From the IMG/VR virus record IMGVR_UViG_3300045988_183350: DNA of 64,000 nucleotides; one strand, 5' to 3'. Positions 4,005 through 37,449 of this stretch are shown here, piece by piece. The position numbers and the translations under genes are program-made. Position 1 is the stretch's first letter. The number at the start of each line of letters is the position of its first letter. The stretch comes from a virus. The notes under the pieces are model-generated. The model saw only the letters and a list, made by a program, of their open reading frames with translations. It made no database searches and was not told where the DNA came from.

Positions 4005-4766
4005 ATGAATTTAGCAGAAAAAGCGAAGAAGCATCATGCGTTGATGGAAAATACAAAGTCAATTTATACTGACGGAACCGTATTAGAATCAACAATTTAT
4101 CTTGAAGATGCTTTTGACAATAAAAAACAATCATATAGAACATTTAATAATGACATTGTTATTGCTGACCTTGATTCTATTTCAGCTGCTTACAAATATG
4201 AAATGACAGGTCGTGTTGCCTTATTGAATTTTGCGTCATTTACCCATCCTGGTGGTGCGTTCTTGTTTGGTAGTCGTGCTCAAGAAGAAGCCATTTGTCA
4301 TGAGTCAAATTTGTTTGAAATTTTAAATGACGATAAATTTAGTTTGTTTTATCGTATCAATCAAAAGGACCTTGGCAATCACTTATATTACAATCGTGGC
4401 ATTTACTCACCAGGAGTTATTTTAACTCGAGATAATGACGAACACTTTACTGACGTTATTACTGTTGCGGCTCCTAATGCGATGAAAGCTTATGATGGCA
4501 CAGATGATTTTGATGTGAGAAATCTTGTTATTTTGAAATCTCGAATTGATTTTATCTTAAAAATTGCAGAAGCAAATCATGTTGACACATTGATTCTTGG
4601 AGCTTTTGGTTGCGGTGTCTTTGGTCAAAGTCCATATGACGTAGCAACTTGTTTTAAAGACCTCTTGCCTCATTATAACTTTAAAAAAGTTGTCTTTGCA
4701 ATTCCTGATTTTAATGATGGCAATTTAGAAGCATTCAAAGAAGTCTTTACAGAAGAAAATAAATAA
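4005..4766 (+). CDS. Macro-domain protein, bacterial-type poly(ADP-ribose) glycohydrolase-like (DUF2263/TIGR02452 family)
   Basis: Signature 'NFASFTHPGGAFLFGSRAQEEAICHESNL' matches the GGG-x6-8-QEE PARG motif; RBS AAGGA 9 nt upstream. Confidence 0.55.
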   Translation: MNLAEKAKKHHALMENTKSIYTDGTVLESTIYLEDAFDNKKQSYRTFNNDIVIADLDSISAAYKYEMTGRVALLNFASFTHPGGAFLFGSRAQEEAICHESNLFEILNDDKFSLFYRINQKDLGNHLYYNRGIYSPGVILTRDNDEHFTDVITVAAPNAMKAYDGTDDFDVRNLVILKSRIDFILKIAEANHVDTLILGAFGCGVFGQSPYDVATCFKDLLPHYNFKKVVFAIPDFNDGNLEAFKEVFTEENK

Positions 4767-17991: not shown

Positions 17992-18010
17992 GTTATCCGC
18001 TTTATATTTA

Positions 18011-18084: not shown

Positions 18085-18113
18085 TTACTCTAATATAAAG
18101 GAAGTTAATTAAA

Positions 18114-18296: not shown

Positions 18297-18302
18297 CATT
18301 TT

Positions 18303-18374
18303 TGTCCTATAGTTAAGTTTGGTATAATGCACGACTGATAATCGTGTGTCACTGGTTCAAATCCAGTTGGGACA
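18303..18374 (+). tRNA. tRNA-Ile (anticodon GAT)
   Basis: Anticodon arm CACGA-CTGATAA-TCGTG; T-arm CTGGTTCAAATCCAG. Confidence 0.65.
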
Positions 18375-18380
18375 ATTTAA

Positions 18381-18453
18381 TGACTGTTGGTCTAACGGAG
18401 CATGACGTCCGGCTACGAACCGGGAGATACGGGTTCGATTCCTGTGCGGTCAA
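18381..18453 (+). tRNA. tRNA-Arg (anticodon ACG)
   Basis: Anticodon arm TCCGG-CTACGAA-CCGGG; T-arm CGGGTTCGATTCCTG. Confidence 0.6.
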
Positions 18454-18463
18454 TTAAATTTTG

Positions 18464-18538
18464 GTGGTATAGTGCAAAGTTGGTTGAGCAACCAGACTGT
18501 GAATCTGGCGTTACTCGGTTCAAATCCGAGGTATCACC
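18464..18538 (+). tRNA. tRNA-His (anticodon GTG) with 5' G-1
   Basis: GGTGGTATAGTG...CCAGA-CTGTGAA-TCTGG...CGGTTCAAATCCG; discriminator C. Confidence 0.6.
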
Positions 18539-18551
18539 CTATCAATACTAT

Positions 18552-18638
18552 GGAGTCGTAGACATAATTGGTATTGGGCTGGTCTTGAAAACCAGTGGCG
18601 TGTAAAAGCGTTTGTGGGTTCGAGTCCCACCGGCTCCT
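18552..18638 (+). tRNA. tRNA-Ser (anticodon TGA), long variable arm
   Basis: Acceptor GGAGTCG/CGGCTCC; anticodon arm CTGGT-CTTGAAA-ACCAG; T-arm GGGTTCGAGTCCC. Confidence 0.55.
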
Positions 18639-18646
18639 TAAAATAA

Positions 18647-18718
18647 GCTGAAATAGCTCAACTGGTAGAGCACTCGCCTTGTAAGCGAGCGGTTGCAGGT
18701 TCGATTCCTGTTTTCAGC
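18647..18718 (+). tRNA. tRNA-Thr (anticodon TGT)
   Basis: GCTGAAATAGCTCAACTGGTAGAGC-ACTCGC-CTTGTAA-GCGAG...GCAGGTTCGATTCCTG. Confidence 0.7.
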
Positions 18719-18728
18719 ATTAAATTTA

Positions 18729-18801
18729 GGTCGCATAGCTCAGTTAGGTAGAGCACTCGGTTGAAGCCCGAGGCGCACTGGTTCAATTCCAGTTGTGACC
18801 A
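18729..18801 (+). tRNA. tRNA-Phe (anticodon GAA)
   Basis: GGTCGCATAGCTCAGTTAGGTAGAGC...TTGAAGC...CTGGTTCAATTCCAG. Confidence 0.65.
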
Positions 18802-18891
18802 TAAAATAAATGTAAAAAAACTTTAAAAAAAAGGGTTTACTTTTATTTTAAATATGATATAATATAAATATATATTTTAACTTTAAAATAT

Positions 18892-18964
18892 GGTCTCGTA
18901 GCGCAGCTGGTTAGCGCACTTGCCTGTCACGCAAGGGGTCGCGGGTTCGAATCCCGTCGGGACC
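18892..18964 (+). tRNA. tRNA-Asp (anticodon GTC)
   Basis: GGTCTCGTAGCGCAGCTGGTTAGCGC-ACTTGC-CTGTCAC-GCAAG...CGGGTTCGAATCCCG; own promoter at 18833-18863. Confidence 0.7.
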
Positions 18965-18965
18965 G

Positions 18966-19457
18966 TTCGATTTTAATGTTAACGGCAAATAGACTATTTA
19001 GTCTATAGCTCCGTGAGAGTTTAGCACTCTCTAACATTAAAATCATCTGCCCAGCCTAGGGGCAATACAGTATGGCAACATGCTGAAAGGAATTGTTTGA
19101 GACAACGTTCCGCCAGGTGAAAGCCTGGTTAATTAGGCAATCCATTTTTTAAATCAAACCAATGTAATGCTCCAGAGCTTCCTCACGGGAAGTCCTTCGG
19201 GAACTTTTGGCAGAAAGTCATAAGTTGACTAGCTAGCAAAGTTAGCTTGTGGGCAACGGAGTAGTAAAATGGAAGGATTAGTAGTTAGCCTATGCAGGGG
19301 CTAGCGGAATCCATGGTAATACGTAAATGGTTGGCGGATTATGATAAGTATTATCGAGTTTCATATACCGTAGCGGGTAGCGAAATAATAAATTGGCGTG
19401 GAGCATTTTGTCGGTCAAAAGCTGACGAAACTCCGAGGCACAGCACGTCAATGTCTC
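18966..19457 (+). ncRNA. Unassigned ~490-nt highly structured non-coding segment (candidate ncRNA; identity unresolved)
   Basis: No ORF; many stable hairpins (AGACTATTTAGTCT, GAGAGTTTAGCACTCTC, GGGAAGTCCTTCGGGAACTT); sits inside the tRNA operon. Confidence 0.3.
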
Positions 19458-19535
19458 ATAGGTAATTAGCTCACGTTGGTAGAGCAGTTGACAGTAAATC
19501 GATAGGTCGTGGGTTCGATTCCCACATTACCCTCC
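19458..19535 (+). tRNA. tRNA-like element, anticodon GTA (Tyr), atypical (A33, short variable arm, A1:C72)
   Basis: AGGTAATTAGCTCACGTTGGTAGAGC-AGTTGA-CAGTAAA-TCGAT-AGGTC-GTGGGTTCGATTCCCAC-ATTACCC; the 3' end resembles a tmRNA/tRNA T-arm. Confidence 0.4.
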
Positions 19536-19855
19536 AGGAAAGCGAAAGTCTGTGTCAGACTTAAAAAGAAAGAACATTAAATCCATACAGTTTTTACTGA
19601 ATATGGAGGCGTTACGAGCTCGCAAGCAAGTATCGCTTTAGTCCAAGTATTTCCGCAAACTTGAGCCGTACAACTCAGGTCTAACGAAATCGGGCCGAGT
19701 AAGTTTAGGTCTTAAGAGTTAGCATCACTCGCGGGTTTGTAACCGTAAACGATGAATGTTTGTGAGATACAACTGGGAACAGTTGTGGATAAGTGATTAA
19801 CCAATAAGGTCACTAAAGGCTCACATTTTAATGCCGTAATCTCAGGCATGACTAA

Positions 19856-19937
19856 TCCAGGATAGCCAAGCGGTAAGGCATGGGACTTTGACTCCTAGAC
19901 GCGCTGGTTCGAATCCAGCTCCTGGAATTCCATTTAA
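19856..19937 (+). tRNA. tRNA-Gln (anticodon TTG)
   Basis: Acceptor TCCAGGA/TCCTGGA; anticodon arm TGGGA-CTTTGAC-TCCTA; T-arm GCTGGTTCGAATCCAGC. Confidence 0.55.
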
Positions 19938-20025
19938 AATTAAGAAATGAGGAAACATAAAATGAAAACAAATACAAATACAAAACGATGTTGGACAACT
20001 TTTTAATTTAGTATATTATTAAGTT

Positions 20026-20103
20026 GTCTGTGTAGCCAAGTGGTTTAAGGCGGTGGATTGCAACCCCACTATTTTTTCGCAGGTTCGAATCCTGTCGCAG
20101 ACT
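20026..20103 (+). tRNA. tRNA-Cys (anticodon GCA)
   Basis: Acceptor GTCTGTG/CGCAGAC; anticodon loop TTGCAAC; T-arm GCAGGTTCGAATCCTGT. Confidence 0.5.
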
Positions 20104-20605: not shown

Positions 20606-23167
20606 ATGAAATCTAATAAAAAAACACTTTCAACCATCGCTGCAGCTGCAGCTGTCGTAACTGCATCAGGTACAGTCGTTGCACATGCTGATACAACCGA
20701 TGTAACAGTTAATGCAAATACTGCTCCTACAACTGAAACAGTAAAACCTGCTGAAAATACAGGTGTCACTGCTGAACCAACTAATTTGCAAGAAGCTGAA
20801 ACTAATCTTTCACAGATTGAACCAGCCTATCAAAATGCGGTCGCAGAACAATCAAATGCGCAAACTAATTTAAATGCGGCAACAGATGCACAAAATCAAG
20901 CAGTTGAGTTTGCCAATCAAAATGCACGAGCTTTGAATGATGCAAATGCACAGCTTGACTCAAAAGCCGCTGAACTTAGCGACGCTAAGAATGACCAGGC
21001 TAATGCACAAGCTGATGTCAATGCAGCTGAACAAGCTCTTAATAAAGAAGTTGCCAAAAATCCAACAGCTGAAGCTGATTTGACTCAAGCGGAAACTGAC
21101 GCTCAAAAAGCAAATCAAGCAAAAGTTGCCGCTGAAAACCACGAAGCTGATGTGCAAAAAGAAATTGCAAAAGCTGACAAATCTGCGGGTGAATTGTCTG
21201 AAAAAGTTGCAAAAGAACAAGGTTCAGTAGACACTTTGGCAAAACAAGCTCAAGATTTGGCTAAAACTTCTGACGAAGCACACAAAGCACAAGCTGACGC
21301 TGAAAATGAATTGGCTGAAAAACAAACTGAAGTGAACACTAAAGTGGCTAAATTGCAAAGTGATGTGGACAACGCATCAACTGATGACATTATCACGTAC
21401 GAACGTACAGACGCGAAAACACTTAACGGATTTGACTATGACCGTGACGACGCGAATGAAGGCGCTGGTAAAACTAAGGAAGTTGTCATCACTGACGGTA
21501 AAGAAACTGTTAATATTAATTTGACTCCAGAACAACAATTGGATTACCAATCAACAGGTGGATTCACTTACACACCAAATATGGCAGAAGTGAACAAACA
21601 TTTGGTTGCTTACATTAATCGTCTTCGCGAAATCAATGGTATTACTGACAAAGTAACTACAGATGACGTTGCTCAAGCATTCGCTCAAGCTCGTGCAGAT
21701 GAATTGACAAAAAATGATGTATTGTCTCACCACTCATCAATGGGTCATCCACATTCTTGGGAAAATATTGGCGGCGTTATGTACAACACTAGCAGCAACT
21801 ACTTTTACAATCCGTACATTGTATTGTCTGACCAACAATTCGCTTACATGGAATTGGCTCACTGGTTTGCCGAATACCGTAATGCCGCATCAGGCGCAGG
21901 AAGTGTACAATATGGACACCGCCTTGCATTGCTCTTCTCAGTAGGTAATGTTGGATTTGGTGCTACAAATAAACCTGGCACTGAAGCCAATGAATTCGAC
22001 GGTTATGCGTCACTAAATGTATTTGCATATCCAGGTCAAAGTTCGAAATCTGAAGCACTTAAAAATGTTACTTACGAAAACGAAGATGGCCGTTTGGTAA
22101 TGTACCTTAACGGTAAACGTGTGAAATTCTTGCCTGAAATCACATTTAACTATGTATCAAACAAGAAAATTGTAACACCATCAACAGCTAAACAAGATGC
22201 TCAAGCGCGTCTTGACGCTTACAAAGCTGAAGCTGCGAAAGTATTGGCCGAAGCTCAAACTAAAGTTAACGAAGCAAAAGCACAAACAGCTGATATTGAC
22301 GGTCAATTGGCTAAAGTTAATGCAGATTTGGCATCACACCAAGCATCTCTTGATAGTCTTAAAGCTGAATTGGCTAACTCTAAATCAATTTCAAATGATT
22401 TGAAAGCTCGTCTTGTCGAAGCTACTGCTGACGTGAATGCGACAAAAGCTGACAAAGAAAAAGCTGACGCGAAACTTGCTGAAATCAAAGCTCAAAACAA
22501 AGCTTTGACTGAAGCTCGTACTAAATACACTGAAGCTGTCAATAAAGTTGAAACTCTTAAAGAAAACGTTCAAAAACTTGAATCTGACATTAAAGGTTTG
22601 ACTGAAACTCGTGACGGTCTTGCAGCTAAACAAGATGGTTTGAACAAAGCTGTCGAAACTGCAAAAGCTAAAGTCGCTGAAGCTAAAACCGCTTATGAAG
22701 CTGCGAAAACAAAAGCAAATGAATTGACTAAAGCCTACGTGAAAGCTCAAGCTGACGTGCTTAAATTCACACCTAAAGAAGCTCCAAAACCTGAAGTAAA
22801 CCAAGGTGCAAACGTTGAAGTGAAACCAGAGGCAAAAGTTGAAGTAAAACCAGGCCAAGCAGGTGTTAAAACAAATGGTCAAACTGTGGCTAAAACAAAT
22901 GGTCAAACAGCTCAAGTACAACCAGGTACAGTGGCGACTCAAACAGCCAATGGTACACACGTAAACGTGAATTACGTGGCTCAAGCGACGCCTGAAACTG
23001 GTTCAGTAAAAGCGGATGGCGCATTTGTTGGCTCACGTGTGGCTAAACATACAAACGAATTGCCATCAACTGGTGACAATGGTTCAATGCTCGGTGCAGC
23101 TGGACTCGCAATTGTATCGGCGCTTGGATTGGCTGGATTTGTGAACCGTCGTCGTAAAAATAGTTAA
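20606..23167 (+). CDS. LPXTG-anchored surface protein with long coiled-coil (M-protein-like) regions and a central globular domain
   Basis: Signal peptide; Ala/Glu/Lys-rich heptads; C-terminal LPSTGD + hydrophobic segment + RRRKNS sortase signal; tandem promoters at 20406-20436 and 20531-20562. Confidence 0.65.
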   Translation: MKSNKKTLSTIAAAAAVVTASGTVVAHADTTDVTVNANTAPTTETVKPAENTGVTAEPTNLQEAETNLSQIEPAYQNAVAEQSNAQTNLNAATDAQNQAVEFANQNARALNDANAQLDSKAAELSDAKNDQANAQADVNAAEQALNKEVAKNPTAEADLTQAETDAQKANQAKVAAENHEADVQKEIAKADKSAGELSEKVAKEQGSVDTLAKQAQDLAKTSDEAHKAQADAENELAEKQTEVNTKVAKLQSDVDNASTDDIITYERTDAKTLNGFDYDRDDANEGAGKTKEVVITDGKETVNINLTPEQQLDYQSTGGFTYTPNMAEVNKHLVAYINRLREINGITDKVTTDDVAQAFAQARADELTKNDVLSHHSSMGHPHSWENIGGVMYNTSSNYFYNPYIVLSDQQFAYMELAHWFAEYRNAASGAGSVQYGHRLALLFSVGNVGFGATNKPGTEANEFDGYASLNVFAYPGQSSKSEALKNVTYENEDGRLVMYLNGKRVKFLPEITFNYVSNKKIVTPSTAKQDAQARLDAYKAEAAKVLAEAQTKVNEAKAQTADIDGQLAKVNADLASHQASLDSLKAELANSKSISNDLKARLVEATADVNATKADKEKADAKLAEIKAQNKALTEARTKYTEAVNKVETLKENVQKLESDIKGLTETRDGLAAKQDGLNKAVETAKAKVAEAKTAYEAAKTKANELTKAYVKAQADVLKFTPKEAPKPEVNQGANVEVKPEAKVEVKPGQAGVKTNGQTVAKTNGQTAQVQPGTVATQTANGTHVNVNYVAQATPETGSVKADGAFVGSRVAKHTNELPSTGDNGSMLGAAGLAIVSALGLAGFVNRRRKNS

Positions 23168-24770: not shown

Positions 24771-25457
24771 ATGACAAATAATGCAATTAAAATGACTAAC
24801 GTTGCCAAAACATATAGCAACGGCGTTAAAGCATTGAGTGATATTAATTTAACTGTGAAACCCGGAGAGTTTGTTTATATTACAGGCCAGTCCGGCTCAG
24901 GTAAATCAACACTCATTAAAAGCTTGTATCGCGAGGAACGTGTGGACGGGGGACGTATTACAGTAAATGATTATGACGTCACTGCTTTAGGTGACTCTGA
25001 GATTTATAAACTCAGACAAGAAATCGGTATTGTCTTCCAAGATTACAAACTCCTTAAAAATAAAACTGTTTATGAAAACATTGTTTACACACTTGATGTG
25101 ACGGACCAAGACCCTGAGACGTTTAGAGCTCGTGTTCTTGAGGTCCTTAAATTCGTAGGTCTTGCCCATAAAATTAATGTGTTCCCAACTGAATTGTCTG
25201 GTGGTGAACAACAACGTGTGGCAATTGCTCGTGCGATTGTAAACCAACCAAAGGTTATTATTGCCGACGAACCTACAGGAAATCTTGACCCTGACACGTC
25301 ATGGGACATTATGAACTTGCTTGAGCGAATCAACCTTAATGGGACAACTGTTCTTATGGTAACACACAACGAAAAAATTGTCAGCAAACTTCGCCACCGA
25401 ACATTGACCATTGAGAGTGGCAAAATCAAATCTGATAAGAAAGAAGCAGGTGAGTAA
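24771..25457 (+). CDS. ftsE: Cell-division ABC transporter ATP-binding protein FtsE
   Basis: Walker A GQSGSGKST, ABC signature LSGGEQQRVAIARA, Walker B IIADEPTGNLD. Confidence 0.8.
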   Translation: MTNNAIKMTNVAKTYSNGVKALSDINLTVKPGEFVYITGQSGSGKSTLIKSLYREERVDGGRITVNDYDVTALGDSEIYKLRQEIGIVFQDYKLLKNKTVYENIVYTLDVTDQDPETFRARVLEVLKFVGLAHKINVFPTELSGGEQQRVAIARAIVNQPKVIIADEPTGNLDPDTSWDIMNLLERINLNGTTVLMVTHNEKIVSKLRHRTLTIESGKIKSDKKEAGE

Positions 25458-25459
25458 AT

Positions 25460-26401
25460 ATGTTCAAACGTAAATGCCAAAAAATTTGGAAGCTCGTAAT
25501 TGCATCATTACTAAATCTTAAACGTAATATTTGGATGTCAGTTATCGCAATTACGTCGACCTCAGTAATGCTTGCTTTGGTTGGTCTATTCGTCGGTGTA
25601 CTTGTAAATACGTCAAAACTAACAAATGATATTGAGAACAAAGTAACAATCAATACTTACTTGGCGACGTCTACAGCCGACAATAGTCAAACTATCAAAA
25701 ATGACCAAGGCCAAGAAGTACCAAACACTGAATACCAAAAAATCAAAACTGAACTTGTTCAGATTGAGGGTGTGAAATCAGTTACATGGTCAAGTAAAGA
25801 CGAGCAATTGAAAAAACTTGTCAAAACAATGGGTAAATCATGGGAAAATATTTCAGGTGACGCCAACCCATTGCATGACACTTATATTGTAAAAGTTAAC
25901 AATCCGAATCAAGTGAAATCAGTTGTCGCAAAAATTAAAAAACTAAATAATATTGCAAAAGTTAATTATGGTGGTGAGACTACTGATAAGATTATTAAAA
26001 TTGCAAATATCACCAAAACTTGGGGTGCAATCGGTATTATTATCTTATTATTTGTTGCGGTCTTCCTTATCTCAAATACAATCCGTATTACAATTATGGC
26101 TCGAAAAGATGAAATCCAAATTACACGTTTGGTTGGTGCAAAAAACAGCTACATTCGTTTGCCATTCATCTTTGAAGGTCTCTGGATTGGTATTTTAGGT
26201 TCGGTGATTCCATCGATTCTTATTGGTTGGGTGTATAACGTTATTTATGCAACTTACAGTCAATCAATCGCCGCTCAAAACTTAGCTTTGGTAACACCAG
26301 GTTCAATGGTAACACGAGTTATCTTAGTTATGATTATCTTGAGTTCATTAATTGGTGCCGGCTCATCACTATTTGCAATGCAAAAGCATCTTAAAATTTA
26401 A
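25460..26401 (+). CDS. ftsX: Cell-division permease-like protein FtsX
   Basis: Immediately follows ftsE; N-terminal TM, large extracellular loop, C-terminal TM bundle (FtsX topology). Confidence 0.7.
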   Translation: MFKRKCQKIWKLVIASLLNLKRNIWMSVIAITSTSVMLALVGLFVGVLVNTSKLTNDIENKVTINTYLATSTADNSQTIKNDQGQEVPNTEYQKIKTELVQIEGVKSVTWSSKDEQLKKLVKTMGKSWENISGDANPLHDTYIVKVNNPNQVKSVVAKIKKLNNIAKVNYGGETTDKIIKIANITKTWGAIGIIILLFVAVFLISNTIRITIMARKDEIQITRLVGAKNSYIRLPFIFEGLWIGILGSVIPSILIGWVYNVIYATYSQSIAAQNLALVTPGSMVTRVILVMIILSSLIGAGSSLFAMQKHLKI

Positions 26402-26440: not shown

Positions 26441-26470
26441 GGTTTACTTTTATTTTAGTTATGGTATAAT
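26441..26470 (+). promoter_or_regulatory. Conserved promoter plus conserved leader ATAAGTAATGATTAAAGAAATGAGGA
   Basis: The same promoter-leader cassette recurs at 27511, 28931, 62721, 63679 and on the minus strand at 34927, 36474, 37311, 39726. Confidence 0.6.
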
Positions 26471-26503: not shown

Positions 26504-27478
26504 ATGGTTTCAAAACGAGACAAAATGATTGAAAACTTAAACCACGAAGACAAGATTAACTTGCTTTGGATGGCGATGAATGGCAATCCACAAAATGTGG
26601 TTTATGGTTATGACGAGATTAAATCATACATTGCTTATATTAAAGCGATTACAAGTAAAAAGAAAATCTCACGAGTGTCGTCTGAAAAAACTCCTTTTGA
26701 CAACTCTGAAAAATCAAAAGAATTCTTTGAAAAGTACCAAGCTAAAGTTGCGTCTATGGCACATTTGACACAGCTAAATGAGGCCGAAATGGTGGACCTT
26801 ATTAAGCGTATCAAAGCTGGTGTCGGCAAAGATAGTCAAACACTTACTGACAATCAGTATAACTTCTTGTATGGTGATTCACACCCTGCCGAATTGCGAG
26901 ATTATATTGACAATATTAAATTGCCAACACTTACAAAAATTGATTCCCGTACAAAACACGGTAAGGAAATTCTTGAGATGGCGTCACAAGATAAGTACTT
27001 TAATGACCACTTCGCCATTGAAGCTATCTTTGAACCTGACTTTAAGCGTCGTAAATTCCCTAAAAAAGATGGTTGGAAAGTGATGCGAGGCGTTCACGGA
27101 ACGACTAATAAATCATTGCTTGGTATTTTGAATGGTGGGTTTAAGTTGGCAAGCCAATTGCGAAAAGATGGAGCTGATTTTAAATATATGGGCTCAGCTT
27201 TTGGTGACGCGATTTATTTTGCTCGCCTTGACCAAATTTCAAAGCCAATCAATTATATGGACAGCTCATATCCAACAACATATATTATTGTTGCAGACCT
27301 TTATTACAAAGATAAAGTTGACATTAAGCTTGGTGGTATGCGTTTTGATGGCTCAACACATTATACAGGCGAAAACCTTGTTCACGCTCACGACGCTGGT
27401 CGTTACAATCGTGACGAATTGATGGTTCAACCAAATCAAATAGATATTCGTTATATCCTCCAAGTGGGACGCAAATAG
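26504..27478 (+). CDS. PARP-like ADP-ribosyltransferase (catalytic H-Y-E-type fold)
   Basis: 'VMRGVHGTTNKSLLGILNGGFKLAS...YMGSAFGDAIYFARLDQISKPINY' parallels the PARP1 catalytic core '[23 protein letters not shown]...[20 protein letters not shown]'. Confidence 0.55.
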   Translation: MVSKRDKMIENLNHEDKINLLWMAMNGNPQNVVYGYDEIKSYIAYIKAITSKKKISRVSSEKTPFDNSEKSKEFFEKYQAKVASMAHLTQLNEAEMVDLIKRIKAGVGKDSQTLTDNQYNFLYGDSHPAELRDYIDNIKLPTLTKIDSRTKHGKEILEMASQDKYFNDHFAIEAIFEPDFKRRKFPKKDGWKVMRGVHGTTNKSLLGILNGGFKLASQLRKDGADFKYMGSAFGDAIYFARLDQISKPINYMDSSYPTTYIIVADLYYKDKVDIKLGGMRFDGSTHYTGENLVHAHDAGRYNRDELMVQPNQIDIRYILQVGRK

Positions 27479-27499
27479 GCTAAATTTAGCCTATTTTTT
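27477..27499 (+). terminator. Rho-independent terminator
   Basis: AGGCTAAATTTAGCCTATTTTTT. Confidence 0.6.
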
Positions 27500-27574
27500 A
27501 TTACATAAAAGGTTTACTTTTATTTTTTATGTGGTATAATATAAGTAATGAATAAAGAAATGAGGAAACAAAAC

Positions 27575-28891
27575 ATGACATTTAAGCTATATCCAAAGCA
27601 ACAAGAAAAAGCTGAAATCTTACTTGAAAACTTTAAAACTAAAGATTTTATGTTTATGACTGGTGAGGTTGGTGTCGGTAAAACATATATTGGTACGTAT
27701 GTATTGCGACAATGGCAAAAAGAAAACCCTGATAAACACTTCTTGGTTATCTCACCAAAACAAGTTATTGCAAAATGGAAAAAAGTGCTTGCTGAAGCTG
27801 GCGTCGACATGGCAAATGTAACTGTGAAATCAACATTTAATGCCGAAGATGTCAATAAAAGCTTTGCCGTTATTTATGACGAGATTCACGAAATTAAAAC
27901 CAAAGTAAAACACTTCAGTGATTTTGTCGAAACTCACAAAAAAGTACTTGGGTTGACAGGCTCAATTATTGATAAAAGTGTTCGCGATATTACAAATATC
28001 ACAAATGCGTTTTCAAATAAAGGTGAAAAATTCCCTCAATACAAAGACGTATCGGTTTGTTATCACGATATGATTGCTTATGCTCGTTTGTTTATCGAAC
28101 CTGTAATGACCGTTGGTTTGTCAAAAGACGACGTTATTGAAACTAATGATGACGACGCAATTATCATCGATACATACACTAAATCAATTGCAATGAATGA
28201 TGAGGAATCAGCCTTTTATGACTTTATGTCGGGCCGTCTTGCAAAACTACAAATTAGTCCAGACCAACGTATGCGTGTATTGAATGAATCTTTGGACCGT
28301 GTGCCTGGTCGTACGGAATTTATCCAAAAGACAAATCGTAATACAAATGAAGATGGCACAATTGAAACTGTCACTAATTCATACTTTATCGGCGAGAAAC
28401 TTCATAAAACAAAATCAAAGAAAGATTATATTGTCAGTGAATTGCTCGAAACTTACGACAAACGTACTTTGATTTATACATTTGATAACTCAGTTGCTAA
28501 ACGTATTGCCGAAAGTACTGAAGCTGTCTTTGTAGACACGTCTAAACGTGAAACTGCTGAAGCTGAAATCAACGAAAAACTCGAACAAAGTGCTGTTGTT
28601 ATCAATATCAGTAACATTTTGACTGGTGTCGACCTTCATGCAGACACAATTATTTGGTATCAAACACCTATTTCACTTGTACAAGATGTGCAAGGTGTTG
28701 GACGTATTACTCGTTTGTCAAGTTCTCGAAATGACAAAAAAGTTATTTACTTGTATCATGAAAATACAATGCAAGAAACACAAACAAAAGCTTTGCAAGA
28801 AAACCACAAACTCAATAACGAAATGATTGCTAAGAAAGACAAATCAAAAATGGGTAATGATTACTTCCCATTTGGTTTGTCTCGTAACTAA
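27575..28891 (+). CDS. Superfamily-2 helicase / ATPase
   Basis: Walker A GEVGVGKTY, DEIH motif II (VIYDEIHEIK), C-terminal QGVGRITR (motif VI); start at the ATG after the conserved leader (track ORF begins at 27548). Confidence 0.55.
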   Translation: MTFKLYPKQQEKAEILLENFKTKDFMFMTGEVGVGKTYIGTYVLRQWQKENPDKHFLVISPKQVIAKWKKVLAEAGVDMANVTVKSTFNAEDVNKSFAVIYDEIHEIKTKVKHFSDFVETHKKVLGLTGSIIDKSVRDITNITNAFSNKGEKFPQYKDVSVCYHDMIAYARLFIEPVMTVGLSKDDVIETNDDDAIIIDTYTKSIAMNDEESAFYDFMSGRLAKLQISPDQRMRVLNESLDRVPGRTEFIQKTNRNTNEDGTIETVTNSYFIGEKLHKTKSKKDYIVSELLETYDKRTLIYTFDNSVAKRIAESTEAVFVDTSKRETAEAEINEKLEQSAVVINISNILTGVDLHADTIIWYQTPISLVQDVQGVGRITRLSSSRNDKKVIYLYHENTMQETQTKALQENHKLNNEMIAKKDKSKMGNDYFPFGLSRN

Positions 28892-28919
28892 AACGTTAAG
28901 AAACTCTTAACGTTTTTTA
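28892..28919 (+). terminator. Rho-independent terminator
   Basis: AACGTTAAGAAACTCTTAACGTTTTTT. Confidence 0.65.
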
Positions 28920-28992: not shown

Positions 28993-30009
28993 ATGGTACT
29001 TAACAAATCACAAATGATGATGTATAAAAAATACAACGGTGTGTTATCAGATATTTCAGACTTTACAAATATCGATTGGAATAGTCTTTTGGTTGATGGC
29101 AAATATGACAAAGATTTTGGTGATTACTCAAGTAATTATGACCTTAAAGAAAATATCACAATTCAAACGTTGCCTATTGGGTTTTTAAGCAGTGAAAATT
29201 ACGGTATGCGAATTACAAAGGCAAAAGATACTGAAGGTGGCGACATTATTATTTTGACAAGTTATGCGTCAACACCAATGTTTTTGATGTCACCTATAGT
29301 ACAAATTGGACAAGCTATTTATTACTTGCCATTTGATTATTTTGTAAAAATTCTCGAACTTAATATTGTCAATCTTGACAAGTTGTCAAGCGACGTTCGC
29401 GTACGTATGCGTGACCAATACCACAAAAACATTCACGAGATTTATACAAAGGCTCAAGAGACACCTCTTGTAACTAAAATCAATGAGGCGAAAGTGTCAT
29501 ACACAAACGATTGCCGTGATTTTGTGTATCAAAACCCAGACAATATGAATGAATTGATTTTTGTTAAGTTGTATATCAATAAACTTATGCAACAATACCG
29601 TACAATGAATAAGCAATCGCCTCTTTACATTGGGGGACGTCCAATTCAAGGTAAACAAATTGCAATTTTTAATGCCCATCCGGCAATGGAACTTTTGACC
29701 CAAGACCAATATAACGCTAAGCCTTATGGTGTCGGTTATTATGGCTCATCAATGTACTCAGTCATGATGTCTGCTCAAAATTCAGCTGTTCACTATCACA
29801 TTGCGGTTGACAGTGTGGAAAATCGCCTGAAAGCTCACTTTATGACGTCAAGGAATAAAAACACCGAACCATTTTATTATGACTATGGCGTGTCTGACAA
29901 ATTTTATCAATTTAGACTTAACCTAAACTCAGGTAACTCAGGTGTACGCGTTGAATATTGTTCGTTAAACACATACACACCTGAAGGCCTTGTACAATGT
30001 CTTGACTAA
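28993..30009 (+). CDS. Hypothetical protein
   Basis: 338-aa ORF after the conserved promoter-leader cassette (28931-28992). Confidence 0.5.
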   Translation: MVLNKSQMMMYKKYNGVLSDISDFTNIDWNSLLVDGKYDKDFGDYSSNYDLKENITIQTLPIGFLSSENYGMRITKAKDTEGGDIIILTSYASTPMFLMSPIVQIGQAIYYLPFDYFVKILELNIVNLDKLSSDVRVRMRDQYHKNIHEIYTKAQETPLVTKINEAKVSYTNDCRDFVYQNPDNMNELIFVKLYINKLMQQYRTMNKQSPLYIGGRPIQGKQIAIFNAHPAMELLTQDQYNAKPYGVGYYGSSMYSVMMSAQNSAVHYHIAVDSVENRLKAHFMTSRNKNTEPFYYDYGVSDKFYQFRLNLNSGNSGVRVEYCSLNTYTPEGLVQCLD

Positions 30010-31223: not shown

Positions 31224-32795
31224 ATGATTTTACTTATTGTCATTGCAGTAGTTGCACTGCTTGCAATTCTTCTCTTTGCAAGTGGCTATGTGTCAGCCCG
31301 TCCAAATGAGGTCCTCATCATCACAGGGCTTGGTAAGCCACGTTCTTTAGTTGGTAAAGCCGGTTGGAAAGTTCCATTACTTGAAAAAACGTCGTCAATT
31401 AATATTGAACAATTTTCAGTAGACGTTAACACAAGCGAAGCTGTACCAACACAAGACTTTATTAACGTAATGGCTGATGCCGTTGTTAAAGTTAAAGTTG
31501 CCACTCATGATATTGTCGAAAAAGACGATAATGGTAACGCAAGAGTTCTTTATACCAAGGAAGAACTCCTTGAAGCTGCGGCTCAAAACTTCTTGAATCG
31601 TGATACAGATTGGATTGCTAGTCAAATCCAGGACGTTCTTGAAGGTAATCTCCGTGAGATTATTGGTCAAATGGAACTCAAAGCAATGGTAAGCGACCGC
31701 CAAGCATTTGCCGATAAAGTATTCCGTAATGCACAACCTGACCTTGCAAAAATGGGTCTTGAGATTATTGCCTTTACTGTTCAAAACTTTAAAGACAATC
31801 AAAATGCGATTGAAAACTTAGGTGCAGATAATCTTGCCCGAATTCAAAAAGACGCCACAAATGCAAAAGCTAAGGCTGAAGCTGAAATGGCTACTGTTAA
31901 AGCGGAACAAGCTAAGCTTGCAGCGGATGCTCAAGCTGAATCAGATTTGGCGATTGCTGCTAAGCAAAATGAAGTTAAGATTCAAAAAGCCGAACTTAAG
32001 GCACAATCAAGCCGTAAAGAAGCTGAAGCTAATGCTGTTGGATTGATTGAAGAACAAAACCAACGTAAGACAATTGAATCTGCAACCGCAGACGCAAACA
32101 TTGTTAAGCAAAAGAAAGAGGCTGAAGTTGCCGAACAAGAAGCAAAAGTTGCCGAACAACGCTTAAACGCAACTGTTCGTAACCAAGCTGATGCCGACCG
32201 TTATGCGAAGGAACAACAAGCCAATGCCGACTTGTACACTCGTAAACAACAAGCCGAAGCTGAAAAAGCTGAACGCCAAGCTGACGCAGATGCAAAATAT
32301 TACGAAGTCACACAAGAAGCTGACGCTAAAGCTAAAAAGGCTGAGGCTGAATTGCAGGCTGCAAAAGCTGAAGCTGAAGGAATCGAAGCTATTGGTAATG
32401 CGAATGCCCGTGCAAAATATGCTGAACTTAAGGCTGAAGCTGACGGTCTTCGTGAAAAAGCTGAAGCTCAACGTTTAATGGGTGAAGCCTCAATTATCGA
32501 AATGATTGTTGAACAATTGCCTAAAGTTGCTGAAGCTGTTGCGTCTCCACTTTCAAATATCGATAACATGACTGTTTATGGTTCAGACGGTGGTTCAAAA
32601 ATTGTTGCAGACATGATGCAATCAATCAACCAAATCTCTGAAGGCGTTGGTCTTAATATTCCCAACCTTCTCGCCTCTACATTGACAGGCCGTGCGATGG
32701 CTACAGGCTTGAAACAAGCCGATGTAACCAAAGAAGTTACAACAGAAAAAGTTGAAGATGTAACACCGGAAGTTACAACTGAAGACGCTGAATAA
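31224..32795 (+). CDS. SPFH/band-7 flotillin-like protein (FloT/YuaG-like)
   Basis: N-terminal TM hairpin, SPFH core, long Ala/Glu/Lys-rich EA-repeat coiled-coil, C-terminal segment. Confidence 0.7.
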   Translation: MILLIVIAVVALLAILLFASGYVSARPNEVLIITGLGKPRSLVGKAGWKVPLLEKTSSINIEQFSVDVNTSEAVPTQDFINVMADAVVKVKVATHDIVEKDDNGNARVLYTKEELLEAAAQNFLNRDTDWIASQIQDVLEGNLREIIGQMELKAMVSDRQAFADKVFRNAQPDLAKMGLEIIAFTVQNFKDNQNAIENLGADNLARIQKDATNAKAKAEAEMATVKAEQAKLAADAQAESDLAIAAKQNEVKIQKAELKAQSSRKEAEANAVGLIEEQNQRKTIESATADANIVKQKKEAEVAEQEAKVAEQRLNATVRNQADADRYAKEQQANADLYTRKQQAEAEKAERQADADAKYYEVTQEADAKAKKAEAELQAAKAEAEGIEAIGNANARAKYAELKAEADGLREKAEAQRLMGEASIIEMIVEQLPKVAEAVASPLSNIDNMTVYGSDGGSKIVADMMQSINQISEGVGLNIPNLLASTLTGRAMATGLKQADVTKEVTTEKVEDVTPEVTTEDAE

Positions 32796-33132: not shown

Positions 33133-33705
33133 TTATAAATCAAATGCCACTGCAGGTTTTTCTTCAGTTTTAATTGCAGGATTAAGTTGTTCAAATGAGT
33201 AATCATTCGCATTACTAATTAAATAATCGATAAAATCACGTTTTGCAGGAATGTGTTGCGTTAAATCATCAGCGGCAACTAACATATTGTTAATGTCATT
33301 GCCGAAAATATCGCCTACAACATAAAAGGTATTATGGGCTGTAACGAATTTTTTAACAACTGACCAAAACCCTTTTTTAAATGTCGATTTAGTATAGGTG
33401 ACCTTATACTTAACGGCAATTCGACGAAATTCATAATTATATACGGCAATCAAATATTTTGTAGTCATATCGTCAAGATAATTTTCATAATTTGCTTTGT
33501 CATTAAGAATTTTTTTCATAACGTCCGCAATTTTACGACATCGTTTTCGATTTTGTTCGTAACCTTCCCAGGATAAATAATTACCACAATAAGGGGCTCG
33601 TTCAAAGCCAAAATAATTAAATTGACATTGAGGCCCATAAGCCTCATCGCTAACACCAGTTAAAATCTCAACCATAAAATCAAGTTTGTATTTTGTATCA
33701 ACCAT
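33133..33705 (-). CDS. Family-B paralog (190 aa), C-terminal tail ...AVAFDL
   Basis: Paralogous to 33724-34302, 34320-34898, 35162-35671 (shared KLDFMVEIL, ANYKKYL, VKYKVTYTS, NTFY, AADDL motifs). Confidence 0.55.
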   Translation of the reverse strand: MVDTKYKLDFMVEILTGVSDEAYGPQCQFNYFGFERAPYCGNYLSWEGYEQNRKRCRKIADVMKKILNDKANYENYLDDMTTKYLIAVYNYEFRRIAVKYKVTYTKSTFKKGFWSVVKKFVTAHNTFYVVGDIFGNDINNMLVAADDLTQHIPAKRDFIDYLISNANDYSFEQLNPAIKTEEKPAVAFDL

Positions 33706-33723
33706 TAGTTTTACCTCCTAAGC

Positions 33724-34302
33724 TTACAATTCTGTAAAATTTGTTGATTCATGTACGTATTCAAGTAATTGACCAGTATTTGCAAATGACCACGCCGTTG
33801 CATTAGCTAACAAAAACTTTATGTCATCAGCTAGCAACAAAGCATGCTGGTTTAAATCGTCAGCCGCAATTAGCGTATTGACCTCACTACCATAAAGGCA
33901 ATCACCTGCAATATAAAATGTATTGTGTTTTAGTACAAAAGATTTCGCATTTTCTGGAAAAAACGTTGGAAAAGTTTCGCTTGTATACGTAACTTTATAT
34001 TTAACGATAAACATACAAAACACTTCATTATAAATATTAAGTAGGTATCGCTCGGTGTTTGCGTTCAAATATTTTTTATAATTAGTCTTGTCTTTGACAA
34101 TTTGATTCATTACTTTTGAAACATTTTCGATTACAATTGAATCGATAGTTTCTAAATACTCATCAAAACCAGCGTCATAGTCCCAGCCATAATAATTAAA
34201 TCGACAACTGCCAAAACCAAAGCCATAACTAAACTCATCCATAGCTGTAACACTCTTTAAAATCTTAACCATAAAATCAAGTTTGTATTCTTTATCAATC
34301 AT
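33724..34302 (-). CDS. Family-B paralog (192 aa), C-terminal tail ...STNFTEL
   Basis: Paralog alignment; RBS AGGAGG. Confidence 0.55.
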   Translation of the reverse strand: MIDKEYKLDFMVKILKSVTAMDEFSYGFGFGSCRFNYYGWDYDAGFDEYLETIDSIVIENVSKVMNQIVKDKTNYKKYLNANTERYLLNIYNEVFCMFIVKYKVTYTSETFPTFFPENAKSFVLKHNTFYIAGDCLYGSEVNTLIAADDLNQHALLLADDIKFLLANATAWSFANTGQLLEYVHESTNFTEL

Positions 34303-34319
34303 TAGTTTTACCTCCTGTA

Positions 34320-34898
34320 TTACAATTTTGTAAAATCAGCCGATTCACGTACTGGTCCGGCAATTGGGCTAAGCTGTTCAAATGAGCAATCGCTTGCATT
34401 TTTAAGCAATGCTGCAGTGTCGCCAGGTGTCGTTACGACATATTGGCTTAAATCGTCTACAGCAACTAATGCGTTATATGCTTTAGTGTCAAGACAGTCA
34501 CCAATCGCATAAAATTCGCTGTTTTCCAATACGAAAGTTTTAACATGTTTTGGGAAGTATTTCGGAAAAGTCTTACTTGTATAAGTCATTTTAAATTTGA
34601 CAATCATTGTACGGAAAATACGGTCATAAGCTGTGACTAAGTATTCTTCAGTAATTGCGTCTAAATACTTTTTATAATTAGCTTTGTCGTCTGAAATTTG
34701 TTTCATTGCATTTACAATAATATCAGCCTTTTCTTTAGCTTTCGCATAACCTTCATACTTTACATACTCACTGCATACAGCATCACGTTGCAAACCAAAA
34801 TAAGAAAAACGGCACTCACCGTAACCTTCGCCCACTTTGCCTGTAACTTCAGTTAAAACCTCAACCATAAAGGCAAGTTTACTTGTGTTATCAATCAT
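34320..34898 (-). CDS. Family-B paralog (192 aa), C-terminal tail ...SADFTKL
   Basis: Paralog alignment; own promoter-leader cassette at 34927-34962 (-). Confidence 0.55.
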   Translation of the reverse strand: MIDNTSKLAFMVEVLTEVTGKVGEGYGECRFSYFGLQRDAVCSEYVKYEGYAKAKEKADIIVNAMKQISDDKANYKKYLDAITEEYLVTAYDRIFRTMIVKFKMTYTSKTFPKYFPKHVKTFVLENSEFYAIGDCLDTKAYNALVAVDDLSQYVVTTPGDTAALLKNASDCSFEQLSPIAGPVRESADFTKL

Positions 34899-35161
34899 TG
34901 TATTTACCTCATTTCAATTTATATAATCATTATACCACAATAAATTTAAAAGTAAACCTTTTTAAGTGAATTAATGTAGCCTAAAAGTATGCTATAAACG
35001 GGCTATTGGTCGCTATTTAAAAAATAAGCAATGCTTATTGACCACAATAGCGTTTAAAAGCCCATATCAAGCATATATCGCGGCTAATCTTAAGTCTAGG
35101 CTAAATACATAGGCTGGCTTTAAAACGCGATACGGGCTTAATATGGACTATTTAAAGACGA

Positions 35162-35671
35162 TTACAAATTTACTGAATCAGTATCGGCTTTTACAATTGG
35201 CAATTGGTTGTTATGGAAACATTTACTACTGCAAATTAATTGGTCAATATAGGCTTCAGAGGTCTCAACATGGTCGTCGGTATTTGTAACTGACGCTAAT
35301 CGATAAAACTTTCCGCGAGTATAAATCTTATGCAAAATATAAAATCGTGGATTGCGTTTAAGAAACGCTTTTACATTTTTCCTAAACCCTTTAAAGTTGT
35401 CATTTGGGTCAACCTCAATTTCAGTCAAAACAGCTACCTGCCAATAAATTTTTTTGTACTGTTGCACTAATGCAGTTACCACTTCTTCTGTCAAGTAAGC
35501 TTTATAATTTGCTTTGTCATTTGTAATGGCAATAAGATTCGTCATAATGTCTGCGTTATACTCTACTGGTTTAATATAGCCGGCATAATCGGTATAAAGT
35601 TTACATTCCCCGTATTCTTCAACCTCGACTAAAATATCAATCATAAATGTTACAATTTCGTCATTAGTCAT
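35162..35671 (-). CDS. Family-B paralog (169 aa), C-terminal tail ...TDSVNL
   Basis: Paralog alignment (DKANYKAYL, FY). Confidence 0.5.
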   Translation of the reverse strand: MTNDEIVTFMIDILVEVEEYGECKLYTDYAGYIKPVEYNADIMTNLIAITNDKANYKAYLTEEVVTALVQQYKKIYWQVAVLTEIEVDPNDNFKGFRKNVKAFLKRNPRFYILHKIYTRGKFYRLASVTNTDDHVETSEAYIDQLICSSKCFHNNQLPIVKADTDSVNL

Positions 35672-35688
35672 AATTACTTCCTTTCATC

Positions 35689-36444
35689 TTACAGTTCAAA
35701 ACTTACAGGTTTACCAGAGTCCGCATTTACAGGTTTGTCTACTTTTTCAATATAGCCAAACATGCGGTCACAATTATATTTTGGAAGAAAGACTTTTTTG
35801 CCGTCACTAAAGTTTACCTCATATTGGCAAGCGTCACGCTTTGCAAAAATACTTGTGGTAAATGTGAAAATTGAATCCTTGTCAAACTCTGTTAAGTCTG
35901 AAACTCTACTACAAATGTCAAAATCTTTAATGCGAAATGGACCAAGTGTCGTTGTACTATTTAGTTCATCTAAAATGAAATACCTTGCATCCTCATTTTC
36001 AGTGACTATATAACTAAGCATTGAGCCTTTAATAAATGTTTCATTAATTGTCCAAAAATTATCCTCGTCGATGAGATTTGTCATTAATTTTTTAAGATTA
36101 GTGACTCCGGCTTTATTAAATTCGCGCCTACACAAGTTATCAGCCATGCTATACATAAATTGTTTTGTACCGTCATCACCAGTACGAACAAGTATATCGC
36201 CGAAAGCCCGGTTATCACCTGTAAGGGCATTTAATTTTTCAATAAGCTCGGCCTTATTTGACAAACAATTTACTGGAACATTAATCCACGTTTTCATGCG
36301 TGTAAACTTTTTCATAAACTCAAAGTTAATGTAGTAATTACCGGCTTTAGTTTTATAAATACATTCGCAGGTATATTTACTACCACCAGGCATATTCACT
36401 GAATCGCTCAAAAATTGTGTTTCTGGATATTTAAAAGTTGTCAT
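35689..36444 (-). CDS. Family-A paralog (251 aa), C-terminal tail ...KPVSFEL
   Basis: Shares GPFRIKDF and FTFTTSIF motifs with 36555-37277; promoter-leader at 36474-36512 (-). Confidence 0.55.
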   Translation of the reverse strand: MTTFKYPETQFLSDSVNMPGGSKYTCECIYKTKAGNYYINFEFMKKFTRMKTWINVPVNCLSNKAELIEKLNALTGDNRAFGDILVRTGDDGTKQFMYSMADNLCRREFNKAGVTNLKKLMTNLIDEDNFWTINETFIKGSMLSYIVTENEDARYFILDELNSTTTLGPFRIKDFDICSRVSDLTEFDKDSIFTFTTSIFAKRDACQYEVNFSDGKKVFLPKYNCDRMFGYIEKVDKPVNADSGKPVSFEL

Positions 36445-36554
36445 TGTTTAATTCCTCATTTCTTAATTTATAACTATATTATACCAAAATATATTTAAAA
36501 GTAAACCTTTTTGTAAATAAAAAAATTGCATTAATGTGTTAATGCAATTTAAAA

Positions 36555-37277
36555 TTATAGTTCGAAAGCCATAGTGTCAGTTTCAATTTCGTCAGCTGTG
36601 GTTTCTTTTTCCTCGATACGTTCAACATGTTTCCAAGCTGTCTTAAAGTCACCAGCTTTAATAGTAAATGTGTCACCATTATCCTTAGTTACAAGCATAC
36701 GACTTATGGCTCTGTCTTGTCCAAAGTAATTCGTTGTAATTGTAAAAAGCTTACTGTCAAAGTTCTCAAAACCTTTATAATAATTATATGGATGGTCACG
36801 CTTAAACGTGATGAAATCTGTGATTTGGAAAGGTCCCATAGTCACCAAACCATTCAACTCAGTTTGAATTCGAGGGCGAACATTACGATTGTCATGCAAT
36901 TCCAAAATTGCGTCTACATCAGCAACTTGTGCAATCACACGGTCAAACTTAGTCACTAAAAGTTGGCGCAATTTTGCTTTGTCTTCTTTGTCAATGTGCG
37001 GGTAATAATAATATAGACCACCTGCAACGTGAGAATAATGCCTTTGAGTTTTCCAAGTTTGAACCAACGGTTTAAGCTTTTGATTAAGTTCATCCGCATT
37101 TGCAAGCTCATCCACAGGAATACTTAGTGTAACATCTGCCCAAGTGTAGTCAGGACGAACTCTAAAGTATAAATACAATTTATCAGTTTCACGTGTCTGA
37201 ATAATACCTAAGAATGTACTATTTTTTGTGTTAGCTTTAAACTCTTGCAAGTACTTTGCTTCTTTTGATACCGTCAT
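36555..37277 (-). CDS. Family-A paralog (240 aa), C-terminal tail ...DTMAFEL
   Basis: GPFQITDF, FTITTNYF; promoter-leader at 37311-37345 (-). Confidence 0.55.
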   Translation of the reverse strand: MTVSKEAKYLQEFKANTKNSTFLGIIQTRETDKLYLYFRVRPDYTWADVTLSIPVDELANADELNQKLKPLVQTWKTQRHYSHVAGGLYYYYPHIDKEDKAKLRQLLVTKFDRVIAQVADVDAILELHDNRNVRPRIQTELNGLVTMGPFQITDFITFKRDHPYNYYKGFENFDSKLFTITTNYFGQDRAISRMLVTKDNGDTFTIKAGDFKTAWKHVERIEEKETTADEIETDTMAFEL

Positions 37278-37449
37278 TACTTATGTCCTCATTTCTTAAT
37301 TTATATTTACATTATACCATAAAATTTTTAAAAGTAAACCTTTTTATAGTAAAAAATTGTACTAATGTACTAATACAATGATACAAGAAAAAGCCGTTTT
37401 AATCTACTTTTATATGGCGAAGCTATTGTTTAATGGATTAAAATGGCTT

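Follow-up and report, generated by a model that had tools for sequence, protein, structure and literature searches.

A predicted PARP-type ADP-ribosyltransferase and an adjacent SNF2-like ATPase as a candidate two-gene module of phages

Introduction

How PARP-type enzymes work in bacteria, without eukaryotic chromatin, is the question raised by a locus in IMG/VR virus record IMGVR_UViG_3300045988_183350, from which we analysed a stretch of 64,000 nucleotides (nt), hereafter the window; all coordinates are positions in it. An open reading frame (ORF) on its plus strand, at 26504-27478, encodes a PARP-like protein of 324 amino acids (aa) containing VHGTTNKSLLGILNGGFKLAS...FKYMGSAFGDAIYFARLDQISKPINY. 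A helicase-like gene follows at 27575-28891, and a gene for a homologue of bacterial-type poly(ADP-ribose) glycohydrolase (PARG) lies at 4005-4766. A first-pass annotation of the window had proposed that the PARP-like and PARG-like products form a dedicated writer/eraser pair for ADP-ribosylation, and had mentioned coupling to the helicase as a mere possibility. All three ORFs were confirmed in the sequence, but their comparison across phages reverses that emphasis: the pairing of the PARP-like gene with the helicase, conserved in five divergent lineages, is the best-supported part of the proposal, while a dedicated PARP/PARG pair, though not refuted, is unsupported by distance, by promoter cassette and by co-occurrence alike.

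Results

The PARP-like protein

The protein divides into an N-terminal alpha-helical domain (residues 1-140; 26504..26923, plus strand), which is family-specific and without known fold, and a PARP-type ADP-ribosyltransferase (ART) catalytic domain (residues 141-324; 26924..27478, plus strand), which carries H198-G-T, Y238-F, S246-K...Y251 and R303-D-E305. The Pfam PARP model (PF00644) matches the window protein with E 5e-5 and 23.3 bits, below its cut-off of 26.7, which is passed by other family members (50.8, 44.1 and 38 bits; 32.1 in phage TPWB06 and 37.9 in contig L090). There was no other Pfam match at E up to 1, zinc fingers, BRCT and WGR being absent, and the protein has no match in PHROGs and no defence family in PADLOC. 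In an alignment of 14 homologues (35-99% identity) H198-G-T, Y238-F, S246-K, Y251 and R303-D-E305 are all invariant, and when the profile of this alignment was compared with the PDB, PARP1 catalytic fragments ranked first (E 3e-5). A global profile alignment pairs H198, Y238, Y251 and E305 with H862, Y896, Y907 and E988 of a manually entered PARP1 sequence.

The AF2 model of the protein is confident (pLDDT 82.6, pTM 0.84) and places E305 in the penultimate beta-strand. Its fold is that of a diphtheria-toxin-like ART, most similar to PARPs, with PARP4 as joint top structural match; matches in BFVD were a bacteriophage NAD+ ADP-ribosyltransferase, IIV6 100L and a protein of Aeromonas phage phiAS5. 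Model and structural matches agree with the PARP-type assignment that the first-pass annotation had made from short motifs.

An exhaustive hidden Markov model search of 1.84 billion representatives (E up to 1e-3) put the size of the family at 221 clusters at 50% identity. Among the best 146 representatives the catalytic His is kept in 133 of 137, the Tyr in 141 of 141 and the Glu in 127 of 130 (97-100%), and G199 and Y251 are almost invariant. This retention of the triad, intact in the window protein and aligned with that of PARP1, favours an active enzyme, and to judge by its sequence the protein is a catalytically competent-looking, NAD+-dependent ART of the PARP family (H-Y-E). Pseudo-PARPs such as those of PARP13 or TASOR have lost triad residues; that the phage protein is likewise an inactive domain, serving only in binding or as a scaffold, is highly improbable given the near-invariance of its His, Tyr and Glu together with G199 and Y251.

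The N-terminal part had been described as 200 aa without a recognisable domain that may set the target. The absence of a recognisable domain stands, but since the ART domain starts near residue 140 the uncharacterised part is of about 140 aa, and it is conserved: many distant relatives align from about residue 50 on, giving a conserved core of about 300 aa, so that the helical domain is a constant part of the family and therefore not an obvious variable target selector. It did not match the PARP regulatory HD fold (PF02877). The variable element is rather the additional N-terminal extension of longer relatives (400-750 aa); Pfam, run on ten long representatives, found the PARP domain only and no domain in the extensions.

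By tblastn, the PARP-like protein matches 5 of 50,697 deposited phage genomes. An IMG/VR scan with the alignment of close homologues (A1) returned nothing and one with a broader alignment (A2) returned one locus, while pattern scans from an alignment of the long subfamily (A5) found nothing in metagenomes or in 185,579 bacterial and archaeal genomes (GTDB), the genome scan being of limited sensitivity.

The SNF2-like ATPase

The downstream gene (27575..28891, plus strand) encodes 438 aa. Its correct reading frame is 27575-28891: a GAGGA Shine-Dalgarno sequence stands 8 nt upstream of the start at 27575 and database copies are mostly 438 aa, while an alternative longer ORF from 27548 would start within the conserved 5′ leader. 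Pfam ResIII passes its cut-off on the product (26.2 bits; cut-off 22.5), and SNF2-rel_dom, at 13.3 bits, is below its own (24.9). The motifs GExGxGKT, P..KW, DExH, LTG[ST] and Q..R..R (SF2 motifs I, Ia, II, III and VI) are invariant in nine helicase sequences. Compared with the PDB, the family profile finds as its best match, over the full length, the Sulfolobus SNF2 core 1z63 (E 2.3e-13), and next SMARCA5, ISWI, SRCAP, INO80 and ALC1/CHD1L (ALC1 at E 9e-10). The SF2 label given in the first-pass annotation thus holds at the level of motifs and is revised to SNF2-like by the PDB profile matches; the product is predicted to be a bare SNF2/Rad54-type SF2 ATPase core of about 440 aa. In PADLOC it shows only sub-threshold similarities, to the DpdE, ZorD and PbeA helicases. 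An IMG/VR scan with the helicase profile found one distant, fused relative (L016), at which no PARP is present.

A stand-alone HIRAN domain protein is also encoded in the window (48151-48567). HIRAN in eukaryotes is a DNA 3′-end binder found in fusion with SNF2 ATPases (HLTF and Rad5, for instance), and because of this it might be, by analogy, that the phage HIRAN protein cooperates with the SNF2-like ATPase.

Conservation of the gene pair

PARP-like and SNF2-like genes are adjacent in five divergent phage lineages, in both gene orders and with flanks that differ between lineages. Within the clade of the window, the PARP-like gene precedes the helicase gene in the window itself and in L001 and follows it in L003, L004 and L006, and in L005 two small ORFs lie between them. 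The second lineage comprises a 192-kb IMG/VR contig (L008) and its relative L089, with the PARP-like gene first and 33-44% identity to the window proteins. The third comprises Arcanobacterium phage TPWB06 together with four Staphylococcus/Mammaliicoccus siphophages, near-identical and some 92 kb in length. In these phages a 463-aa ‘DNA helicase’ (full-length identity of 24% with the window helicase, E 2e-21) is encoded directly upstream of a 444-aa hypothetical protein whose C-terminal ART domain is 38% identical to the window protein. Here the gene run reads DnaB, primase, RecJ, RNase H, the helicase/PARP pair and Holliday-junction resolvase. In the fourth lineage, contig L009 carries two tandem, diverged four-gene cassettes (4300-15290), each consisting of a gene for 485/489 aa, a gene for 247/224 aa, an SNF2-like helicase gene and finally a PARP-like gene; between the copies the helicases are 58% identical, the PARPs 40% and the two accessory proteins, which have no Pfam or PADLOC family, 23-29%. 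The fifth (L090 and L091) has a 403-aa PARP-like gene followed by a helicase gene of 632-646 aa.

Searched by tblastn against the deposited phage records, the PARP-like protein and the helicase return exactly the same five. The genes flanking the pair in the other lineages have no Pfam domains, and erasers of the macro, ARH and NADAR types are absent from among them. The two genes form a module that phages keep together. Because their adjacency survives order inversion, duplication and complete flank turnover in five lineages, we infer a functional link between them, drawn from gene adjacency only.

The same pattern bears on a simpler account, in which the enzyme is a host-takeover mono-ADP-ribosyltransferase acting alone on host RNA polymerase or translation factors, in the manner of the T4 enzymes Alt, ModA and ModB, while its place beside a helicase gene has no mechanistic meaning. 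The H-Y-E triad is necessary but not sufficient for polymer synthesis, PARP3 and PARP4 being mono-transferases, and PARP4 is a joint top structural match of the phage protein; in addition, surveys of phage ARTs propose a takeover role for most of them, phage PARPs included (PMC7824862; PMC9503650). An enzyme acting alone does not explain why the adjacency should be kept through inversion, duplication and flank turnover, the phage protein is not of the R-S-E class, and head or packaging genes are not nearby; we regard this account as unlikely.

Somewhat less unlikely, yet still not to be expected, is that the pair is a conflict module, used in defence against co-infecting phages or in counter-defence, in which the SNF2-like ATPase would sense foreign or damaged DNA and the ART effector would modify DNA or proteins or burn NAD+. 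A helicase joined to an effector is a common defence-system architecture, the distribution among phages is patchy, the N-terminal extensions of relatives (300-750 aa) are highly variable, the L009 cassette is tandemly duplicated and diverged, and the ATPase has its weak PADLOC similarities to the DpdE, ZorD and PbeA helicases. Against this, PADLOC holds no family for the PARP-like protein and only sub-threshold ones for the helicase, and the TPWB06 pair lies inside a core replication module. Nor is there any sign of a host-borne defence island, since the limited-sensitivity pattern scan of bacterial and archaeal genomes found no relatives.

Three further observations concern the surroundings of the pair. 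In L008 the PARP-like gene (7558-8465) is broken by a frameshift into an N-terminal ORF of 120 aa and a C-terminal ART frame that lacks a start; the gene is intact in L089 (2897-3802; 301 aa), and the frameshift is likely an assembly error and not decay. FtsE-FtsX genes stand upstream of the pair in L001, L003, L005 and L006, syntenic with the window. A 338-aa ORF without assigned function follows the pair in the window (28993..30009, plus strand). It has weak homologues just after the pair in L003, L006 and L004, with tblastn E values from 1e-6 to 5e-4; Pfam, PHROG and PADLOC offer no family for it, and TPWB06 has no homologue. We considered it as a conserved third gene of the module and rejected it, its homologues being weak and confined to its own clade; its membership is uncertain.

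Promoter cassettes and terminators

Upstream of the PARP-like gene stands a promoter-like TTTACT-N16-(TG)TATAAT (26443..26470, plus strand); the conserved leader behind it contains GAGGA as ribosome-binding site, and a second copy of this promoter/leader cassette (27513..27540, plus strand) stands upstream of the helicase gene. The two are nearly identical from the -35 element to the ribosome-binding site, reading TTTACT-N16-TGgTATAAT and then ATAAGTAATGA.TAAAGAAATGAGGA. This sharing of a cassette in the window counts in favour of a link between the two genes. A terminator-like hairpin with a T-run overlaps the stop codon of the PARP-like gene (27473..27496, plus strand), and another terminator-like hairpin follows the helicase gene (28890..28916, plus strand).

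The cassette, which may be written as TTTACTTTTA...TGnTATAAT with the conserved GAGGA leader, is phage-specific. Its promoter motif occurs in 28 copies in the window (2.35 expected), examples being those at 24708, 26443, 27513, 28933, 30161, 15203, 16365 and 18836, and it precedes many single-gene units, each with a 3′ hairpin terminator, as well as blocks of tRNA genes. No copy is found in the first 9.4 kb of the window, the region of the PARG-like gene.

The PARG-like gene

The product of 4005..4766 (plus strand; 253 aa, containing PGGAFLFGSRAQEE) was correctly placed by the first-pass annotation in the bacterial PARG family, to which its sequence assigns it with a macro-domain fold (TIGR02452/PF10021): TIGR02452 scores 167.4 bits (cut-off 50) and PF10021 84.3 bits (cut-off 23.5), and the solved bacterial PARGs 5zda (E 2.5e-22) and 3sig (E 1e-19) align over about 190 residues. 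This alignment takes in NFAS..PGG.F..G..AQEE and the GA(F/W)GCGVF loop, in which the macro-domain diphosphate loop GAFGCGVFG of the phage protein aligns with GAWGCGVF of the Deinococcus radiodurans enzyme. PHROGs has no match for the protein. In its signature, GGA-FLFGSRA-QEE against GGG-X6-8-QEE, the spacing and the QEE are kept and the third Gly is Ala. All 15 cluster members that were read have this Ala, a fixed state in the phage population; of the 71 PARG-signature sites that an IMG/VR scan found in viruses, only 2 share it.

Could this protein be the eraser in a dedicated writer/eraser pair, running a reversible cycle of (poly)ADP-ribosylation during infection, with the helicase incidental? 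Within the phage population of the window the PARP-like and PARG genes are both core (90% clusters of 248 and 245), and both are present on contigs of 358,636 and 389,773 bp; the PARG keeps its catalytic QEE and diphosphate loop; and the substrates of PARGs are ribose-ribose bonds, which only PARP-type enzymes are known to make. The rarity of PARPs encoded by bacterial hosts also speaks for such a pair, while the poor correlation in bacteria between presence of PARG and of PARP speaks against it, both points coming from one survey (Perina 2014, PMC4245714).

The comparative evidence goes the other way. The two genes are 22 kb apart, and the PARG gene lacks the promoter cassette shared by the PARP-like and helicase genes. 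Among the deposited phage records, PARG homologues are confined to huge phages, including the Lak megaphages and phage G, and none of these PARG-bearing phages is among the five PARP-like records. No PARG was detected in the 92-kb siphophages or, by its signature, in the pair-bearing 192-kb contig. Around the 71 viral PARG-signature sites, 637 kb of combined flanks contain neither a PARP-like gene nor the helicase. The rare GGA variant of the GGG signature in the window protein is a further point against a dedicated eraser. Because of the distance, the missing cassette and the want of co-occurrence in other lineages, the PARP-PARG link is weak, and a dedicated pair is doubtful. A functional link may exist within the phage population of the window, and the PARG fits best as an optional gene, under regulation of its own, that the giant-phage lineage has added, not as a fixed member of the module.

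Just upstream of this gene lies a non-coding, AT-rich stretch of about 2.9 kb (1055-3894), in which a unit of about 1.66 kb stands in tandem duplicate (81-85% identity). Of the 30 copies of the 11-mer ACATTGGAAAA in the window, 27 lie here, in both orientations, against an expectation of 4.9; the last one shares sequence with a -35-like element some 110 nt upstream of the PARG gene. The arrangement looks iteron-like, and the stretch may serve as an origin of replication or in regulation. No further genes of NAD or ADP-ribose metabolism were found among the approximately 45 ORFs of the window that were scanned.

The source phage

The window (G+C about 34%) has no near match at the DNA level among the deposited phage genomes. 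Identical copies of the PARP-like, PARG and helicase proteins are present in public metagenome assemblies, where the contigs reach 425 kb, in keeping with the phage origin supposed at first; their 90% clusters have 248, 245 and 272 members. A 289-kb contig carries a 90%-identical relative with the same gene order as the window. The window is part of a very large phage whose host is Gram-positive and probably Streptococcus-like, a reading based on its genes for FtsE, a Gram-positive-type FtsX, PcsB-like CHAP hydrolases, a choline-binding glucanase, an LPXTG protein and a flotillin.

FtsE (TIGR02673, 278 bits) and FtsX (318 bits) are accompanied by PcsB-like proteins, two with the PcsB coiled-coil and a CHAP domain and one with the coiled-coil only (FtsE/FtsX/PcsB-like genes at 24771-26401, 7522-8520, 10010-11110 and 11208-12269); taken together they make up a virus-borne version of FtsEX-PcsB, the hydrolase system of streptococcal cell division. 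Three host-like envelope genes (13057-15042, 20606-23167 and 31224-32795) suggest an oral Streptococcus-like host: they encode a mutanase-like alpha-1,3-glucanase that carries choline-binding repeats, a coiled-coil protein of 853 aa whose sortase signal is LPXTG, and a FloT-like flotillin.

A tRNA array (15263-20103) comprises 21 genes of 18 amino-acid specificities, including three for tRNA-Met (CAT). Further genes encode an RNA-repair-type phosphatase (HAD_SAK_2), NrdI, YqeY and an ATP-cone protein with a C-terminal part without assigned family (49977-50465, 51552-52007, 52791-53258 and 5429-6682, respectively). Two long series of ORFs that resemble each other in size may be paralogue arrays: the minus strand has nine of 169-255 aa (33133-39709), the plus strand about sixteen of 113-137 aa (56979-63397). 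Pfam gave no family for the nine, nor for 60710-61123, the one plus-strand member scanned.

Discussion

We propose that the PARP-type transferase and the adjacent SNF2 motor form a DNA-coupled phage module to which the PARG is optional, a reading that we hold to be reasonably probable. The SNF2-like motor would bind and translocate on double-stranded DNA, and would either recruit or activate the transferase, or act on what the transferase had modified. The transferase would use NAD+ to ADP-ribosylate a DNA-associated target, be it a protein bound to DNA, one or both members of the pair, or a DNA end. The motor would thereby take over the role that zinc-finger/WGR DNA sensors have in PARP1-3, to which PARP1-ALC1 offers a loose parallel. 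The arena would most likely be phage DNA replication, recombination or repair, or the remodelling of the host nucleoid or of transcription complexes. We favour the first of these because of the gene context of TPWB06; host-nucleoid or RNA polymerase remodelling and a role in conflict are live alternatives. In the clade of the window, the PARG could trim or recycle ADP-ribose chains.

Several observations weigh against this proposal. In the window the two genes are not a strict operon, because each has its own promoter and terminator-like hairpin, and a phmmer search with the helicase found no helicase-PARP fusion among the 146 PARP-like representatives. No PARP-like gene lies within 5 kb of one helicase homologue (L088, 38% identity), and a helicase is absent from the more distant PARP relatives L010-L013, which sets a limit to the pairing pattern. 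Four of the five lineages with the pair are known only as metagenomic contigs, and the neighbourhood in the window (FtsEX, flotillin) is uninformative on DNA metabolism. The residue matching, finally, used as its reference a PARP1 sequence entered by hand.

A bolder version would have phages possess self-contained, DNA-coupled poly(ADP-ribose) (PAR) signalling in prokaryotic surroundings, built from a writer of the PARP type and its obligate SNF2-type remodeller, to which the giant-phage lineage would add a PARG as eraser; the writer-motor partnership would predate or parallel the eukaryotic PARP1-ALC1 chromatin axis and act on the phage or host nucleoid in replication, with the motor as the DNA sensor that switches the PARP on. 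This we think improbable.

The differences from known systems are instructive. The phage protein shares 15-19% sequence identity with eukaryotic PARP1, PARP2, PARP3 and PARP4; unlike these, it has, in 324 aa, no zinc fingers, BRCT, WGR or match to the HD, its loop between the YFA and SK..Y motifs is 2 residues longer, and its DNA-handling partner is a separate SNF2-like protein. ALC1/CHD1L is a PAR-activated SNF2 remodeller tied to PARP1, so that PARP1-ALC1 likewise joins a PARP-type enzyme to an SNF2-family motor, and ALC1 is among the profile matches of the phage ATPase. The latter, in contrast, is a bare core without a macro domain or other PAR reader, linked to its transferase by adjacency only, and common descent of the two partnerships is not implied. 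T4 Alt, ModA and ModB also bring ADP-ribosylation into phage-host biology, but are of the R-S-E class with an Alt/VIP2 fold, whereas the window enzyme is H-Y-E and has no relatives of that fold. DarTG, likewise a user of ADP-ribosylation in this biology, combines a transferase with a macro-domain eraser, its antitoxin, that is adjacent or fused; the window transferase has neither an adjacent nor a fused eraser and no PADLOC match.

Viral and phage PARP-like ARTs (‘PARTs’) have been catalogued in silico, among others those of Aeromonas phage Aeh1, Cellulophaga phage phi4:1, jumbo phages and IIV6 100L (Perina 2014; Iyer 2021; Iyer 2022; PMC4245714, PMC7824862, PMC9503650), and these surveys list the ‘PART’ among the commonest viral ART families. 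Like the window protein, the catalogued PARTs have a virus-encoded PARP-type domain with H-Y-E, but a conserved SNF2-like partner gene is not described in the surveys as far as they were read. The same literature notes a bacterial-type PARG in phage G (gp114), which with the PARGs of Thermomonospora curvata (3SIG) and Deinococcus radiodurans (5ZDA) belongs to the same family as the 4005-4766 product; the bacterial enzymes have the signature GGG-X6-8-QEE, in which the window PARG has Ala as third residue. Huge phages were already known carriers of this family. Jumbo-phage Snf2-type helicases are discussed as UvsW substitutes or RapA analogues. Neither the PARP-SNF2 gene pair nor biochemical work on a phage PARP was found in the literature, a provisional statement for a search that left subscription journals uncovered. 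Phage PARPs and phage PARGs, then, are already known from computational surveys, and the PARP-SNF2 module is, provisionally, apparently undescribed.

The two-gene module offers a testable handle on the working of PARP-type enzymes in bacteria. The 92-kb Staphylococcus/Mammaliicoccus siphophages, being isolated phages with named hosts, should be culturable and their genetics feasible, and the natural PARG in the genome of the window phage could serve reversibility. If the motor activates or targets the transferase, this would be a new way of coupling ADP-ribosylation to DNA; and if true, it would bear on proposals that derive eukaryotic PARPs and SNF2 remodellers from prokaryotic mobile elements and conflict systems.

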